DNA of 4,887 nt from a virus. Its lineage: Duplodnaviria; Heunggongvirae; Uroviricota; Caudoviricetes. Shown piece after piece: positions 1 to 4,887 of this stretch. Positions within the stretch are counted from its first letter, which is position 1, and every line of letters starts with the position of its first letter. The notes below the pieces were generated by a model that made no database searches, was not told where the DNA came from, and was given only the letters and a program-made list of their open reading frames with translations. Location of the stretch: the IMG/VR virus record IMGVR_UViG_2693429508_000001, positions 1 through 4,887 of that record, one strand, 5' to 3'. The translations under genes and the position numbers were made by a program.

Positions 1-34
1 CCTCAAAAACACCATCATACACTAAATCAGTAAG

Positions 35-63
35 TTGGCAGCATCACCAAAATTGGTTATGCT
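35..63 (+). promoter_or_regulatory. Possible late promoter (pR'-like): TTGGCA, 17-nt spacer, TATGCT, upstream of the lysis cassette
   Basis: -35-like TTGGCA at 35-40 and -10-like TATGCT at 58-63 with a 17-nt spacer, placed where lambdoid phages carry pR'/qut ahead of S. Motif match only; no Q gene is visible in the window. Confidence 0.25.
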
Positions 64-93
64 GTTAAGAGTGGTTACTTCGTCACACAGCTT

Positions 94-126
94 AAACCCG
101 CCGTCGAGCGGGTTTTTCCATTTTTT
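94..126 (+). terminator. Intrinsic terminator hairpin in the late leader (tR'-like)
   Basis: Perfect 8-bp GC-rich stem AAACCCGC (94-101) / GCGGGTTT (108-115) with loop CGTCGA, followed by TT-CCA-TTTTTT (116-126). It lies about 110 bp upstream of the holin start, as expected for a Q-antiterminated late leader. Confidence 0.45.
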
Positions 127-238
127 GAGTCTCGATATTAGCTGATAACCCAATACCTGAGTTATTCACTGACTCCGAGTCTGTTACGTTTCGTAGTATT
201 CCCTCAATTTACACCCGCTTTGTCTGCGAGGTGGGGTT

Positions 239-454
239 ATGAAATCCATGGATAAGTTAACAACGGGTGTCGCCTATGGCACCTCAGCAGGTAGTGCCGG
301 GTACTGGTTTTTACAGCTGCTAGATAAAGTCACGCCCTCACAGTGGGCGGCAATTGGAGTGCTGGGTAGCCTGGTATTTGGCCTGCTGACGTACCTGACA
401 AACCTTTATTTCAAGATTAAAGAAGATAAGCGCAAGGCTGCGAGAGGTGGATAA
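239..454 (+). CDS. S: Class II holin / pinholin (phage 21 S-like) with dual-start motif
   Basis: 71-aa ORF starting MKSMDK (Met1 at 239, Met4 at 248), the dual-start arrangement that gives antiholin and holin in S21-type pinholins. It has a Gly/Ala/Ser-rich first transmembrane segment ([16 protein letters not shown]), a second hydrophobic segment ([18 protein letters not shown]) and a basic C-terminus. GAGGTGGGG Shine-Dalgarno at 225-235. Stop TAA at 452-454 overlaps the next start. Confidence 0.9.
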
Positions 455-951
455 TGCCTCCATCATTACGAAAAGCTGTTGCTGCTGCTATTGGTGGCGG
501 GGCTATTGCTATAGCATCTGTGTTAATCACTGGCCCAGGTGGTAACGATGGTCTGGAAGGTGTGAGACATAATCCTTACAAAGAAATAGTTGGTGTATGG
601 ACTGTATGTTACGGGCATACAGGAAAAGACATCATTCCCGGTAAAACGTATACCGAAGCAGAGTGCAAAGCCCTCCTGAATAAAGACCTTGCCACTGTCG
701 CCAGACAAATTAACCCGTACATCAAAGTCGATATACCGGAAACAACGCGCGGCGCTCTTTACTCGTTCGTCTACAACGTGGGTGCTGGCAATTTCAGAAC
801 ATCGACGCTTCTTCGCAAAATAAACCAGGGTGATATTAAAGGCGCATGTGATCAGCTACGGCGCTGGACATACGCTGGCGGTAATCAATGGAAAGGACTG
901 ATGACTCGCCGTGAGATTGAGCGTGAAGTCTGTTTGTGGGGGAAACAATGA
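454..951 (+). CDS. R: SAR endolysin (T4-lysozyme-like muramidase with N-terminal signal-anchor-release domain; R21 / RrrD-like)
   Basis: 165-aa ORF whose ATG overlaps the holin stop (TAATG). The N-terminus [21 protein letters not shown] is a weakly hydrophobic Gly/Ala-rich SAR segment. It is followed by a lysozyme-like core with Glu35 and Thr50 in the E-8-X-5-T spacing and conserved blocks [18 protein letters not shown] and [10 protein letters not shown]. Classic pinholin plus SAR-endolysin pairing. Confidence 0.9.
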
Positions 952-1406
952 GCAGAGTAACCGCGATTATCTCCGCTCTGGTTATCTGCATCATCGTCCG
1001 CCTGTCATTGGCTGTTAATCATTACCGTGATAACGCAATCGCCTACAAAGAGCAGCGCGATAACAAGGCCAGTGAACTGGAGAAGGCGAACGCCACCATC
1101 GCTGACATGCGGAAGCGTCAACGTGATGTAGCAGAACTCGACGCAAGATACATAAAGGAGCTTGCTGATGCTAACGCGACTATCGAAAGTCTCCGTGCTG
1201 ATGTTTCTGCTGGGCGTAAGCGCCTGCAAGTCGCCGCCACCTGTGCAAAGTCAACGACCGGAGCCAGCGGCATGGGCGATGGAGAAAGCCCAGGACTTAC
1301 AGCAGATGCTGAACTCAATTATTACCGTCTCCGAAGTGGAATCGACAAGATAACCGCGCAGGTTAACTACCTGCAGGAATACATCAGGACGCAATGCCTG
1401 AAATAA
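948..1406 (+). CDS. Rz: Rz i-spanin (inner-membrane spanin subunit)
   Basis: ATG at 948 overlaps the endolysin stop (ATGA at 948-951). The six-frame track's 936 start is a GTG extension and less likely. N-terminal transmembrane segment [14 protein letters not shown], coiled-coil-like charged middle, and a C-terminus LQEYIRTQC resembling lambda Rz. Third position in the lysis cassette. Confidence 0.85.
1168..1353 (+). CDS. Rz1: Rz1 o-spanin lipoprotein, embedded in the +1 frame of Rz
   Basis: ORF wholly inside Rz in another frame. AAGGAG at 1155-1160 sits 7 nt upstream of ATG 1168. Signal peptide [19 protein letters not shown] with lipobox-like VSAC (Cys21), then a proline-rich mature region [16 protein letters not shown] typical of Rz1. 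The track's 1162 start is TTG; ATG 1168 is preferred. Confidence 0.7.
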
Positions 1407-1436
1407 TTTTTTTGCAAATCACAAAGTCCATTTAAT

Positions 1437-1460
1437 GAGCCTCGCGATGCGGGGCTTTTT
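1437..1460 (+). terminator. Intrinsic terminator downstream of Rz
   Basis: Stem GCCTCGC (1439-1445) / GCGGGGC (1449-1455) with one U-G wobble, loop GAT, followed by TTTTT (1456-1460). Begins 31 nt after the Rz stop. Confidence 0.5.
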
Positions 1461-1467
1461 GCAATAA

Positions 1468-1492
1468 ATGCGTACCGCAACGCATGTTTTTT
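1468..1492 (+). terminator. Second tandem intrinsic terminator
   Basis: Perfect 6-bp stem ATGCGT (1468-1473) / ACGCAT (1480-1485), loop ACCGCA, then G plus TTTTTT (1487-1492). Confidence 0.45.
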
Positions 1493-1607
1493 ACACCGAA
1501 CCTGCCCCTTTGGAATGGGCCTTTGAGGATACCAGTTAGTGCTGGCGAGCCTCGGTGGGCTGGTTTCCTGTGCGGCAAAGGTTCATTTCAAAGAGTAGGT
1601 ACACGCT

Positions 1608-2105
1608 ATGAAATCATTAACCCTCTTCAATCAACCAATTCGTATCGGTGAAGATGGCATGATCTGCCTCACTGATATGTGGAAAGCCAGTGGTAAAAGT
1701 GAATCTGAATCGCCTTACCACTACCTGCGAAACAAGCAGACCAAAGAGTTCTTAGCCGAGCTGGAGAAAAACCACGAATCTGTGGTTTTTACTGAGCGCG
1801 GTGTACACGGTGGAACATATGGCGGGAAGTTTGTTGCTTACGATTATGCGGCTTGGTTAAACCCCGGGTTCAAGTACGCGGCCTATAAAGTCCTCGATGA
1901 CTACTTCACCGGAGAACTTCAGCATCGCAACAGCTTAAGTGCGCAGCTCAACATGAAATGTCATGAATTTGACCAGAAGAAAGACATGGCGAGCTTCTGC
2001 GGACAAGGGCTGGCAGCATGGCGCTATACGAAGCCAGTGTTGGTCGCTGAGATTAACTCCCTGGCTAACCAGCTGCAGATTACGATCCCCGGGCTTCCGG
2101 GATGA
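1608..2105 (+). CDS. KilA-N-domain protein (APSES-like DNA-binding fold; putative antirepressor / regulator)
   Basis: 165-aa ORF. The N-terminal 100 residues carry KilA-N-type blocks as I recall the family: MICLTDMWKASGK, YLRNKQTKEFLAEL, GGTYGGKFVAYDYAAWLNPGFKYAAY. The C-terminal 60 aa have no recognisable motif. Weak Shine-Dalgarno (AGAGTAGG). The stop overlaps the next ORF. Confidence 0.65.
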   Translation: MKSLTLFNQPIRIGEDGMICLTDMWKASGKSESESPYHYLRNKQTKEFLAELEKNHESVVFTERGVHGGTYGGKFVAYDYAAWLNPGFKYAAYKVLDDYFTGELQHRNSLSAQLNMKCHEFDQKKDMASFCGQGLAAWRYTKPVLVAEINSLANQLQITIPGLPG

Positions 2106-2359
2106 GTGATCATGTTATTGAATGCGCCTCCAGAGCGGGGCGCGACTTCTCAGAGTTCATGAAAGGCGAGAAGGGCATGATGGAAGCATTGGCCTCGGTG
2201 GATGAGTTTGGCGAGCAGCTGCGCCTCAACGGCTGTGTCAATCATCACTTTGTTAGCTACATGATGCGGAACTCGATCATGCAGGCATTCATGGACATGG
2301 CAAAAGCCGAGAGGAAAGAAGAGCGCCGGCGTAAGCGAGCGGAAGCAAAAGCGAAGTAG
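2102..2359 (+). CDS. Hypothetical 85-aa protein with Lys/Arg-rich C-terminal tail, translationally coupled to the KilA-N gene
   Basis: ATG 2102 overlaps the TGA of the upstream ORF (ATGA). The 85 codons are not interrupted. C-terminus KAERKEERRRKRAEAKAK is strongly basic. No recognisable family; internal Met codons (M20, M26/27) are alternative starts. Confidence 0.45.
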   Translation: MSDHVIECASRAGRDFSEFMKGEKGMMEALASVDEFGEQLRLNGCVNHHFVSYMMRNSIMQAFMDMAKAERKEERRRKRAEAKAK

Positions 2360-2583
2360 CCATTACAAAGCCCATTTACGGGTGGGCTTGATAATGAAAC
2401 CGGAATTTATTCTGGGCCACCAGTTAACGGCAGTACCACGAAACAACCCAAGCCAGTAAGTGGGGAAATAACACCGGCAGCCACTGAAAGATGAACCTCC
2501 TGCCTTATGGCAAAAAAGATTCTTTGTGGTGGCGGACTGATGGAAAGACATCCCAATTTCAGCCAAACATTGAAGGAGTTGTT

Positions 2584-2655
2584 ATGTCAGCAGAAGGTTT
2601 CAATAACCCATCAAAATTCCGGGATGAGTGGGATAGCAGCGTAAAGAGTAAGTGA
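2584..2655 (+). CDS. Candidate micro-ORF (23 aa, MSAEGFNNPSKFRDEWDSSVKSK) with strong Shine-Dalgarno; in-frame upstream ATG at 2491 would give 54 aa
   Basis: Consensus AAGGAG at 2573-2578 sits 5 nt upstream of ATG 2584. The ORF ends at TGA 2653-2655, immediately before the hairpin motif. Below the six-frame track's length cut-off. No homology recognised. Confidence 0.25.
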   Translation: MSAEGFNNPSKFRDEWDSSVKSK

Positions 2656-2656
2656 T

Positions 2657-2784
2657 GCCATCACAAAAGCCATTCCCTACAGAGTGGCTTTGATAATGGC
2701 TTATACCCTACACGGGATAACTTAACTGATATCCCTTTTAAAGGATAAAGGTATTCAAGCCTGACACATCATGCGCTGTATCGT
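2657..2784. repeat. 128-bp segment, copy 1 of a near-identical direct repeat (copy 2 at 3391-3518); begins with a 9-bp-stem hairpin
   Basis: 2657-2784 and 3391-3518 differ at only about 3 positions, all within the hairpin arm and loop. Copy 1 is cut off by the IS2 end at 2785; copy 2 continues into the pre-cos sequence. Confidence 0.9.
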
Positions 2785-3057
2785 TAGACTGGCCCCCTGA
2801 ATCTCCAGACAACCAGTATCACTTAAATAAGTGATAGTCTTAATACTAGTTTTTAGACTAGTCATTGGAGTACAGATGATTGATGTCTTAGGGCCGGAGA
2901 AACGCAGACGGCGTACCACACAGGAAAAGATCGCAATTGTTCAGCAGAGCTTTGAACCGGGGATGACGGTCTCCCTCGTTGCCCGGCAACATGGTGTAGC
3001 AGCCAGCCAGTTATTTCTCTGGCGTAAGCAATACCAGGAAGGAAGTCTTACTGCTGT
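2785..3057 (+). mobile_element. IS2 (IS3 family) left end: terminal inverted repeat plus 5' part of orfA, truncated by the N gap
   Basis: Sequence from 2785, TAGACTGGCCCCCTGAATCTCCAGACAACCAGTATCACTTAAATAAGTGATAGTCTTAATACTAGTTTTTAGACTAGTCATTGGAG, matches the IS2 left terminus as I recall it, followed by the InsC reading frame. Only the left 273 bp of the element are present. Confidence 0.85.
2876..3057 (+). CDS. insC: IS2 transposase OrfA (InsC), N-terminal 60 codons; 3' end lost in the assembly gap
   Basis: Translation [60 protein letters not shown] is the recognisable IS2 InsC N-terminus with its helix-turn-helix. GGAG sits 5 nt upstream of ATG 2876. The track's 2831 start is an artefactual upstream extension. 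Confidence 0.85.
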
Positions 3058-3088
3058 NNNNNNNNNNNNNNNNNNNNNNNNNNNNNNN
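3058..3088. other. Run of 31 N: assembly or scaffold gap
   Basis: 31 consecutive ambiguous bases. Sequence before the gap is IS2; sequence after it is the 3' end of an Rz-like gene. The junction is not biological sequence. Confidence 0.95.
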
Positions 3089-3190
3089 GTTGCTGGACGA
3101 AACGTTCTCGGTATCCGGGACGGAATTATCCGCGACCAAACAGCACTGAGAACGCTTCAGGAATACATCAGGACGCAATGCCTTCGATGA
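3089..3190 (+). pseudogene. 3' fragment (33 codons) of a second, divergent Rz-like spanin gene
   Basis: Translation ends [11 protein letters not shown]-stop against [11 protein letters not shown]-stop for the intact Rz at 948-1406. The last 30 nt are near-identical to 1370-1399, but upstream residues and downstream DNA differ, so this is a different allele or locus copy. Confidence 0.6.
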
Positions 3191-3364
3191 TAGCGATAAT
3201 TTTACTCATCATCCTTCACATCTGGCTCTGTAGACAGGGTGGTGCTCACTTCTGGAGTGAATCCAGATTAAACATCTCATTGCTGATGCTTGATATTGAG
3301 CATTTTGCGCGCGGTAAGGGGCTGCGTTGAGATAAGAGCCAGTCATTACAAATACCAGGATTTA

Positions 3365-3387
3365 GCCTCGCATTCGCGGGGCTTTTT
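3365..3387 (+). terminator. Intrinsic terminator, paralogous to the one at 1437-1460
   Basis: Same stem GCCTCGC (3365-3371) / GCGGGGC (3376-3382) with loop ATTC, followed by TTTTT (3383-3387). Confidence 0.5.
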
Positions 3388-3390
3388 ATT

Positions 3391-3518
3391 GCCATTACAA
3401 AAGCCACTTCCTACAGAGTGGCTTTGATAATGGCTTATACCCTACACGGGATAACTTAACTGATATCCCTTTTAAAGGATAAAGGTATTCAAGCCTGACA
3501 CATCATGCGCTGTATCGT
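3391..3518. repeat. 128-bp segment, copy 2 of the direct repeat; perfect 9-bp hairpin AAAGCCACT / AGTGGCTTT at 3400-3425
   Basis: Near-identical to 2657-2784. Here it continues uninterrupted into the pre-cos segment (CGCCGTATTCCC...). Confidence 0.9.
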
Positions 3519-3812
3519 CGCCGTATTCCCGTATTAACCATGACCGTAGCCCGACGGGGAACTCCTTCTGCGCGAGTGTGCGGGAATAATCAAAAACGAT
3601 GCACACCGGGTTTTTACCGCGTTTATGGTTCGCGGGTTTGTCCCTCATGCTCGCCAGTCCTGTGCGGGGGTGGAAGAAACAGGACACTTACACTGATTCT
3701 TGTGGGTACGATGCTATTCCTTTCTGGATTATCCCGATGTCATTCATGCAGGGCGCTGTATCAGACGTTCGTCATGGCTGTCAGGCTGACGGGTCCTCCC
3801 GGTGGGGTGGCC

Positions 3813-3835
3813 TGCCACGGGGCGGGAGCGGCGCG
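3813..3835. promoter_or_regulatory. Possible degenerate cos-like site, about 185 bp upstream of the terminase small subunit
   Basis: CACGGGGCGGGAGCGGCGCGG resembles the lambda end junction ACG-GGGCGGCGACCT-CGCGG as I recall it, and is followed by an AT-rich stretch with TTCGTCATCAC (3862) and TTCATCACTAAC (3939) elements at a cosB-like distance. The exact GGGCGGCGACCT 12-mer is not present. Confidence 0.25.
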
Positions 3836-4005
3836 GAAAAAGGCTAGTTTTTGAAATTTCATTCGTCATCACCACTACTGTAATGGATTGATATTACAGT
3901 GGTTTTATTTTTATGGTGTCGATTTTGATTGTTTTTTGTTCATCACTAACACCGTTTGCCTAAAGTTGTTCGCAAGATGCATGTTTAAAACATTCTGGAG
4001 CGGGT

Positions 4006-4500
4006 ATGGATCGAGAGTTAAAAAATCTGACGCTGAATATCAGTCAACTGGCGGCACTGTCAGGTGTACATCGCCAGACTGCTGCGGCAAGGCTGCAAAA
4101 TCTACCCGTTGCAGGGGGGCATGAAAGCAACCTCAAGCTTTATCGGGTGGTTGATATTGTGTCGGCATTTCTGGCATTACCACCGCCGGTTGCAGAAGGC
4201 GAAATGGACGCGCATGAGCGCAAAGCCTGGTATCAGTCTGAACGTGAGCGTCTTAAGTTCGAACAGGAAACGGCACAACTCATTCCGGCCAGTGATGTCA
4301 GACGGGAGTTTGCCATCTGGGCAAAAGCGGTCGTGCAGGTGCTGGAGACATTACCGGATATTCTTGAACGTGACTGCGGTCTGCAGCCTGCCGCTGTGAG
4401 CCGTGTTCAGTCCATTATTGATGATCTGCGCGATCAGATAGCCCTGCGGGTGACTGAAGCAGGTGCGGATGATGAGGAGGAATTACAGCAGGAGGAGTAA
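4006..4500 (+). CDS. Terminase small subunit (Nu1-like DNA-packaging protein)
   Basis: 164-aa ORF with GGAG 5 nt upstream of the ATG. N-terminal helix-turn-helix-like LNISQLAALSGVHRQTAAARL and the pattern PVxxGG...Y...V parallel lambda Nu1 residues 5-50. Acidic C-terminus. The stop overlaps the start of a gpA-like ORF (TAATG). Confidence 0.8.
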   Translation: MDRELKNLTLNISQLAALSGVHRQTAAARLQNLPVAGGHESNLKLYRVVDIVSAFLALPPPVAEGEMDAHERKAWYQSERERLKFEQETAQLIPASDVRREFAIWAKAVVQVLETLPDILERDCGLQPAAVSRVQSIIDDLRDQIALRVTEAGADDEEELQQEE

Positions 4501-4865
4501 TGCTGAATCAGGAAACCGCAAAGGCAGCACGAACCGATTCAGGTTATATCCTTCGCGCACCGAGACGAATGCGGGTTGCTGATGCCGTTGCTCAGTATAT
4601 GCGGGTGCCCATGGGGGCAGGGAACTCAGTCCCGTGGGATCCGCTGGTGGCACCGTATGTTATTGAGCCGATGAACTGCCTGGCCTCGCGTGAATACGAC
4701 GCAGTGATATTTGTTGGCCCGGCACGAACCGGCAAGACTATCGGCCTGATTGACGGCTGGGTGATTTACAACGTGATTTGCGATCCTGCTGATATGCTGA
4801 TTATTCAGATGACGGAGGAAAAAGCCCGCGAACACTCCAAAAAACGACTCGCCAGAATGAGGTAG
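4500..4865 (+). pseudogene. Terminase large subunit (gpA family) N-terminal 121 codons, ending at an in-frame TAG
   Basis: Translation aligns by eye with lambda gpA residues about 30-135 (window PYVIEPMNCLA against lambda PFQRAIMNAMG; window VGPARTGKTIGLIDGWVIY against lambda VKSARVGYSKMLLGVYAYF). Intact gpA proteins are about 640 aa. A TAG at 4863-4865 ends the frame, and the frame stays open for the 7 remaining codons before the window edge. Confidence 0.65.
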
Positions 4866-4887
4866 CCTGAGTTTAACGGACACTCCT

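Follow-up and report, generated by a model that had tools for sequence, protein, structure and literature searches.

A 4,887-nucleotide stretch of viral DNA in IMG/VR (record IMGVR_UViG_2693429508_000001, positions 1 to 4,887; Caudoviricetes), referred to here as the window, is the late region of a lambdoid prophage. It contains one hairpin motif three times, and the question raised by this locus is what kind of element the motif is. An earlier reading by a model, made without database searches (the sequence-only reading), had offered a bidirectional terminator, a protein-binding site, and module boundary sequences as candidates. The motif is taken here as an intercistronic hairpin and boundary element, a known kind of element, in a form that the literature found does not describe. 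It is a widespread, unannotated element of late operons in temperate enterobacterial phages.

The pattern CCATYACAAA-N10-35-TTGATAATG has exact matches in the window only at 2360–2396, 2658–2698, and 3392–3432, all on the + strand, and no match in 200 dinucleotide shuffles of the window. All three copies fold as hairpins, with free energies of −17 to −25 kcal/mol and z-scores of −3.5 to −7.2, in agreement with the three hairpins with shared flanks that had been noted before. The bounds of the full two-tier element were set by a covariance model and are as follows.

2356–2400, + strand: copy A, with lower stem CCATTA/TAATG(a), internal loop CA/GA, upper stem AAGCCCATT/GGTGGGCTT, and loop TACG.
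2654–2702, + strand: copy B, with the same architecture, upper stem AAAGCCATTC/GAGTGGCTTT containing one U·G pair, and a T-to-C change in the lower stem (CCATCA).
3388–3436, + strand: copy C, from a duplicate of the copy B lineage, with upper stem AAAGCCACT(T)/(G)AGTGGCTTT.

Copy A folds at −17 kcal/mol and scores 63.8 bits with covariance model R1 and 56 bits with the broader model R2, on the + strand only. Copy B scores 54.3 bits (R1) and 53.9 bits (R2). Copy C folds at −24.9 kcal/mol (z of −7.2) and scores 58.5 bits with R2. Copy A starts at the base directly following the stop of an 85-aa open reading frame (ORF), and copy B starts 2–3 nucleotides past the stop (2653–2655) of a 23-codon micro-ORF. 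Both abutments had been pointed out earlier, and the ORF coordinates bear them out. Copy C lies directly 3' of a canonical terminator.

The stems are as the sequence-only reading described them, except that copy B has 10 pairs with one U·G rather than 9. The flanks are conserved as it claimed, but they are not separate from the hairpin. They form an inverted repeat, CCATTA/TAATGG, which is the lower stem of the two-tier structure. Its use of the three copies as covariation stands in part. Pairing is kept, but copies B and C lie in a 129-nucleotide direct repeat whose two copies are 98% identical.

2656–2784, + strand: first copy of the repeat, consisting of copy B and right flank R0, cut off by an IS2 end at 2785.
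3390–3518, + strand: second copy of the repeat, consisting of copy C and right flank R0.
2701–2750, repeated at 3435–3484, + strand: right flank R0, with two small hairpins, TTATACCC..GGGATAA and TATCCC..GGATA.

Copies B and C are therefore one lineage, and the window offers two independent versions and a single comparison, A versus B/C. The covariation claim is solid only with sequences from outside the window.

Such sequences are plentiful. BLAST places the surrounding region in HK620, HK022, Sf6, epsilon34, mEp460, Stx-converting phages, and many Salmonella P22-like phages. A scan of IMG/VR with the pattern, which fixes the flanks by design, gave at least 120 loci, and about 110 of the 120 matches listed are folding copies. 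Between identical flanks these copies carry at least five unrelated upper stems, including GCCCAyy/GGTGGGC, AGCCAyT/AGTGGCT, and GCGTCTC/GGGGCGC; GGGCGGT/ACTGCCC and GCGTCC/GGGCGC were found as well. A covariance-model search beyond the locus, proposed earlier as a check, recovered members in which the flanks themselves diverge. With R1, the flanks are TTATTG...CAATGG in HK620 and HK022, TTATTG...TAATGG in epsilon34, and GCATTA...TAATGC in several contigs. The interval between the major tail protein gene and the gene that follows it provides an orthologous site, and there too the fold is kept in phages of five other genera (Cronobacter ES2, Erwinia Eho49 and Midgardsormr38, Morganella IME1369_01, Providencia PSTNGR2lys, and Klebsiella phage 2). 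There the lower stems are CATTT/AAATG, ATATTA/TAATGT, TATTA/TAATA, and ATAGTA/TACTGT, and the CA/GA loop is retained.

The family as a whole consists of two-tier hairpins of about 45 nucleotides. Each starts 0–8 nucleotides past a stop codon. Its lower stem, of 6–8 bp, is joined through a nearly invariant 2x2 internal loop (5'-CA/GA-3') to a GC-rich upper stem, which has 9–10 bp with 4–7 G-C pairs and is closed by a loop of 3–8 nucleotides. Free energies range from −13 to −25 kcal/mol.

Pairs were counted in an alignment of 27 diverse members (A4); an alignment from the model search (A3) was left out of the counts owing to its mixed strands. In A4, 94.4% of cells pair, compared with 34–51% when the partners are slid. 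Thirteen of 16 pairs are changed on both sides, in 81 such cells, and none of 500 shuffles reaches these values. RNAalifold independently predicts the same two tiers. Stepwise change can be followed at single positions: one pair is G-C in P22, G·U in HK620, and A-U in epsilon34, and another runs C-G, U·G, U-A. With these relatives added, covariation strongly supports the selection on structure that had been suggested from the window, and the selected structure comprises both tiers. The CA/GA internal loop is present in 26 of the 27 members. The exception, with AA/GA, is Aeromonas phage AsXd-1. This copy (L257 1500–1544, MH178096) is 95% identical to the Escherichia-type motif, and it lies in a Hendrixvirinae genome recorded for Aeromonas salmonicida, which points to an unusual host range or to a wrong host assignment.

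No Rfam 15 family matched the motif at its gathering threshold. The nearest were mir-458 (24.7 bits against a threshold of 59), a chance hairpin match, and STnc560 (19.9 against 55). The latter, presumably MgrR, belongs to the ydeI/ydeE intergenic region of the Salmonella chromosome, where it is listed beside the yneM ORF, and not to a prophage.

The two strands are not equivalent. Across the 14 inner pairs, the + strand shows 46 G·U cells and 4 A·C cells, and in many variants the + strand fold is better by 5–7 kcal/mol. Model R2 gives hits on the + strand only. The G·U excess, together with the strand bias of R2, indicates that the selected molecule is single-stranded and in the sense of the late transcript. 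This asymmetry argues against both a minus-strand terminator and an operator in duplex DNA.

The position of the motif is equally regular. Twenty left-flank families have a called, co-oriented ORF upstream; in 19 of them the motif starts 0–7 nucleotides past the stop of that ORF, and in the twentieth the distance is 13 nucleotides. These genes are mutually unrelated: besides the 85-aa ORF they include genes for Rha/KilA-type proteins, a major tail protein, a decoration-like protein, and several small proteins without a known function. A further gene often begins 14–30 nucleotides 3' of the motif, for example one for a small terminase subunit, a tail-completion protein, or phrog_791. In at least five contexts the motif lies directly 3' of a canonical terminator ending TTTTATTG.

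Copies are few per genome. HK620, HK022, and Sf6 have two each (in Sf6 at 37830–37874 and 38494–38542), and P22 has one (NC_002371 40306–40351). Searches of lambda and of the K-12 prophages DLP12 and Qin gave no copy. Type A-like motifs are present in 117 and type C-like motifs in 31 of 50,697 phage records, and among 72,556 plasmid records the motif occurs in only 13, the majority of which have the size of a phage genome. In a pattern scan of genome contigs, the matches listed are mostly non-folding chance hits in AT-rich genomes, and five in Enterobacterales are real. The records of HK620 and Sf6 are richly annotated and have no feature at the motif copies. A literature search found no description of the motif, although Clark et al. 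2001 and Casjens et al. 2004 could hold one.

The motif also coincides with the junctions of genome mosaicism. Comparison of 97 unique contexts gave 4656 pairs, of which 3495 (75%) have only the motif of about 40 nucleotides in common. Homology stops 0–1 nucleotide beyond the pattern on both sides, and identical 37-mers stand between unrelated flanks in 90 pairs. The flank families reassort: left family L0 is found with right families R0, R1, R2, R8, and R33, and R0 is found with ten left families. Hairpin class differs in none of 103 pairs with a common left flank and in 215 of 375 pairs with only the right flank in common. The hairpin type thus follows the left flank, so that the exchanged unit is a gene plus its 3' hairpin, with the junction at the 3' edge of the hairpin. 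Portability as a unit of about 40 nucleotides and coincidence with mosaic junctions are direct observations.

In the window, these junctions involve the following features.

2102–2359, + strand: 85-aa ORF (phrog_875, unknown function), 3' of the KilA-N gene, with its stop abutting copy A.
2397–2656, + strand: cassette between copies A and B, defined by absence or presence in relatives and by alignment.
2584–2655, + strand: 23-codon micro-ORF with a strong Shine-Dalgarno sequence (GAAGGAG, 2572–2578).

The 85-aa ORF is accompanied by a type-A hairpin in HK022, HK620, ECP1, PhiR49_1, Dewey, and Stx phages. By alignment, the segment absent from PhiR49_1 extends exactly from copy A's 3' flank to that of copy B. 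HK022, HK620, and P22 are missing only 2553–2655, the micro-ORF segment, and a different hairpin variant replaces copy B. In ECP1, the same 85-aa ORF is joined via another hairpin variant to an unrelated right flank. It had been suggested earlier that cargo boundaries in related prophages be compared with the motif, and in PhiR49_1, HK022, and ECP1 the two coincide. As a description, module boundary sequence therefore fits: flank families reassort around the motif, and the indels of PhiR49_1 and HK022 are bounded by it. The micro-ORF is probably a real small gene. An unrelated contig (L089) has a 27-aa ORF that shares its peptide NPSKFR(D/E)EWD, with 11 of 21 residues identical, and that ORF likewise has the motif 3' of it.

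Three described systems can be compared with the motif in this respect. The concept of boundary sequences in lambdoid phages is reportedly that of Clark et al. 2001 (HK620). Like the motif, boundary sequences are short and conserved, lie at the junctions of exchangeable modules, and are proposed to support homologous recombination. PMC3029335 refers to them as boundary sequences that are short and conserved. The motif behaves as one in that its flank families reassort and homology ends 0–1 nucleotide outside it, whereas a covarying RNA-type fold is no part of the definition of boundary sequences. The motif copies are not annotated as such in Sf6, where the only bsq feature of the region, bsq7 (37312–37359), lies inside Rz.

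The closest described analogue is PeSL. In T4-type phages, short conserved stem-loop cassettes of this name flank non-essential ORFs, and recombination between them leads to insertions, deletions, and replacements between related phages (Arbiol et al. 2010, PMC2839356; Comeau et al. 2014, PMC4122927). PeSL combines a strong sigma-70-like early promoter with an effective terminator and belongs to lytic T4-type myoviruses. The motif, too, bounds nested indels and has reassorting flanks. Unlike PeSL, it has no detected promoter and no U-tract, and it has a two-tier stem with a conserved internal loop; it is found in the late operons of temperate phages at 1–3 copies per genome. A promoter scan found no promoter-like site at or beside the three window copies. 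An integration host factor (IHF) site or a sigma-70 promoter in the flanks was considered and set aside, as neither fits by reading and the promoter scan shows none.

The third system, integron attC, resembles the motif in being an imperfect palindrome at the 3' end of an ORF, with conserved outer arms, a variable center, and strand-specific folding. The motif differs in having no nearby integrase, no RYYYAAC/GTTRRRY cores, a much shorter length, and no array beyond two or three copies. By reading, its arms are CCATTAC and GATAATGG, which are not attC cores, and its neighbors are lysis, KilA-N, terminase, and tail genes.

The reading we favor, at a rough probability of 45%, is that the motif acts in cis as RNA, marking or protecting the 3' ends of cistrons in late mRNA, and doubles as a recombination patch. 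We infer this function from the structure, strand, position, portability, and junction behavior described above. The element would act in cis on the late mRNA and punctuate the polycistronic transcript at cistron ends, so that the message of the cistron before it would have a defined or protected 3' end. This could come about through a barrier to 3' exonucleases, through cleavage by a host double-strand-specific nuclease at the lower stem and internal loop, or through both. Termination by the canonical variants would be weak at most. The roughly 20 nearly invariant nucleotides would serve as a homology patch for phage recombinases, leading to exchange of a gene plus its 3' hairpin between unrelated genomes. 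Since about 40 nucleotides of near-identical sequence are a usable recombinase substrate, a role in mosaicism is most simply a by-product.

Two kinds of intercistronic hairpin bear on this reading. REP elements, as between malE and malF, are intercistronic hairpins that block 3' exonucleases and set differential expression. Like the motif, they are stable, repeated, portable, palindromic hairpins that follow a cistron within an operon. The REP consensus is unrelated, however, and REP elements are chromosomal and number in the hundreds. T7-type RNase III sites (R1.1 class) are intercistronic hairpins of phage mRNA with an upper stem, an internal loop, and a lower stem. The surroundings of their loop are conserved and the upper stem is variable, and once cleaved, the upstream message ends in a 3' hairpin that protects it. 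The motif resembles these sites in its conserved lower stem, invariant loop, and variable upper stem, a combination that fits the proposed punctuation. It differs in that its symmetric 2x2 CA/GA loop is not the T7 loop and its helix is shorter than about 22 bp. Conservation of the loop across unrelated phage types suggests a host factor rather than a phage factor, and points to a specific host factor, possibly a nuclease, that may act on phage late messages via the CA/GA loop.

Several points weigh against this reading. RNase III is usually said to need a helix of about 20–22 bp, in which an internal loop is allowed (PMC6212723), and the motif, with 15–19 pairs and its 2x2 loop, falls short of about 22 bp. 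G·T wobbles are tolerated in single-stranded DNA too, so the strand asymmetry alone is no proof of RNA, and the RNA-level role remains one deduced from the pattern of conservation. Most instances come from a pattern that fixes the flanks, an ascertainment bias that the model hits and orthologous sites reduce. The A-rich and U-rich flanks of the canonical copies are reminiscent of a bidirectional terminator that has degenerated. A terminator relationship is plausible, since the motif aligns with a canonical terminator at one site.

If the favored reading is true, then P22, HK022, HK620, Sf6, and Stx phages, which have been studied for decades, carry an unannotated structured punctuation element in their late mRNA, and it sits exactly at the exchange points of accessory-gene cassettes. 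The motif bears on the long-standing question of whether conserved linker sequences or illegitimate recombination give rise to mosaicism. It offers a concrete, testable case, with a defined patch of 40 nucleotides, known partner genomes, and nested indels bounded by the motif. The covariance model is also usable for annotating cassette boundaries around prophage cargo genes, including those of Stx phages.

The first alternative is that the motif is an intrinsic, possibly bidirectional terminator. It would end transcription of accessory morons in the prophage and stop antisense transcription from leftward morons, and it would be read through by Q-modified RNA polymerase in lytic growth. The stem is GC-rich, with A-rich 5' and U-rich 3' flanks, and the hairpin moves together with the gene before it, which is the behavior expected of a moron terminator. 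Leftward ybcV-like genes do lie to the right of the motif in PhiR49_1, and Ayreon, the only record that annotates a copy of the motif, labels it "terminator". Intra-operon terminators also occur in P22-like phages, where their role is described as unknown (PMC8022706). Further support comes from the gene-65 site of the window.

3341–3383, + strand: half motif TCATTACAAA at 3344–3353, followed after 11 nucleotides by a canonical terminator at 3364–3383 with tail TTTTTATTG.

Sf6 has a complete type-A motif after the same gene-65 homologue, and the window terminator tail aligns with the TTGATAATG of that motif. At this site the terminator and the motif may be evolutionary alternatives, or a junction may lie inside the motif. 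A half-motif arrangement is also seen weakly at 1415–1433.

The U-tract decides against this alternative as the conserved function. Taking about five or more U in 8 nucleotides as the criterion, counted after the last G-C pair, none of the 27 members qualifies in its + strand tail, where the count is 1–4. On the minus strand the range is 2–6. The canonical copies have 5 U in 8 there, in the tail UUU(U)GUAAU, and 10 other members have 2–4. The fold is retained in 9–10 members with no U run in either direction, among them HK620b, epsilon34b, the Erwinia members, and the GCAGGC-type members. The window copies are the most terminator-like of the family: their + strand tails have 4 U in 8 (UUGAUAAU and UUUGAUAA), and the minus strand reads UUUUGUAA. 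The absence of a U-tract family-wide indicates that intrinsic termination is not what is conserved, and the bidirectional terminator of the sequence-only reading is not supported as the function under selection. Its minus-strand version is contradicted by the wobble counts as well, many minus-strand stems being mismatched by A·C.

Other observations agree. The flanks covary for pairing and not for U content. Frequently the motif comes right after a canonical terminator or precedes essential genes by 14–20 nucleotides. A consensus terminator scan omitted it on both strands though it listed neighboring canonical terminators, and the HK620 authors annotated many terminators and none at the motif. 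Moron and intra-operon terminators share with the motif a GC-rich hairpin just past a stop that travels with the upstream gene, but the motif has no family-wide U-tract, its flanks are selected for pairing, and it is often behind a true terminator. An intrinsic terminator is accordingly considered unlikely. A weak or ancestral terminator role, including a weak minus-strand role of the canonical copies, is possible. The annotated terminator after the major capsid gene of HK620, tGP5 (L128 25827–25853), is a plain hairpin with a U-tract (ACAAGGGGC..GCCCCTTTTATGTTTT) and stands outside the two-tier family, though the ACAA lead-in is common to both.

A second alternative, which we regard as decidedly improbable, is a DNA-level recombination site or miniature mobile element. 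A recombinase would recognize the hairpin in single-stranded DNA, as at integron attC or IS200/IS605-type hairpin ends, and cassettes of ORF plus hairpin would move. The motif is indeed a discrete unit of about 40 nucleotides in contexts with no other homology. Its identical 37-mers between unrelated flanks, its place at ORF 3' ends, its conserved outer arms around a variable center, its strand specificity, the indels it bounds, and the half motif at 3344–3353 would all be expected. In 60 contexts, however, no sign of a target-site duplication is seen. The contexts are ordinary late genes, with no recombinase gene as a consistent neighbor. The arms are unlike attC core sites, and there are only 1–3 copies per genome. 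The connected graph of left–right reassortment is the expectation of homologous recombination at a conserved patch, and orthologous copies diverge at the pace of their neighbors, like a resident functional element.

A related proposal, for which we hold out still less hope, is a cassette-exchange site at which a folded DNA strand or RNA is recognized by a phage or host enzyme and units of small ORF plus hairpin are moved. If true, it would correspond, in phages, to integron attC or to the mini-circles of T4 PeSL and would give lambdoid mosaic junctions a mechanistic basis. Least credible by far is an operator-like site at which a dimeric protein would bind the inverted arms CCATTA(N)AAG in duplex DNA, one form of the protein-binding site proposed earlier: the outer arms are inverted and conserved in sequence, but their distance varies by 4–6 bp (spacing 33–39 nucleotides), compensatory changes keep pairing and not arm sequence, and a strand-specific wobble pattern is meaningless for duplex DNA.

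The sequence 3' of the motif has features of its own. Hairpins of the R0 type lie directly 3' of the motif in many unrelated contexts. Right-flank families R0, R4, R8, R9, R13, and R21–26 carry small hairpins of the forms TTATCCCC-N4-6-GGATAA and TATCCC-N4-5-GGG. In most of these families, the ATG of TAATGG opens a fixed 7-codon frame, ATG GTT ATC CCC NNN NNN GGA TAA (MVIPxxG*). R0, the flank in the window, is excepted, its TAA being out of frame. In two contigs (L046 and L066) and in ECP1, a second motif variant comes next, giving a composite of four hairpins. A role of this ATG as a start for coupled translation was rejected as a function of the motif: the ATG is lost where the lower stem covaries (Providencia TAATA, Klebsiella TACTG), and the Shine-Dalgarno-like GGTGGG is not in other stem types.

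The remaining features of the window are listed below.

239–454: P21-type holin.
454–951: lysozyme.
936–1406: Rz.
1608–2105: KilA-N/ORF11CD3 gene.
2785–3057, + strand: left end of IS2, with the InsC start at 2876, inserted in the R0 flank of copy B and outside the element.
3058–3088: run of 31 N bases.
3089–3190, + strand: 3' end of a second Rz allele, duplicating 1371–1399.
3178–3330: 50-aa ORF.
4006–4500: DUF1441 protein, taken to be the small terminase subunit by its position.
4500 onward: start of a gpA-type large terminase.

In its middle, the window is a prophage region that is either rearranged or composite. Among complete E. coli genomes, none carries 80% or more of 2300–3600 in one place. 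The IS2 end, the N-run, and the second Rz 3' end lie between copies B and C, and the IS2 insertion accounts for the duplication of these copies. Minus-strand ORFs to the right of copy C were rejected as convergent genes; they have no family support, and an 82-aa ORF on the + strand matches phrog_17397. At the left end, a sub-threshold match of 30–121 to the Rfam family Trp_leader was judged to be due to chance. This segment is what we take to be a lambda-type pR' short leader, with a tR'-like terminator at 94–115.

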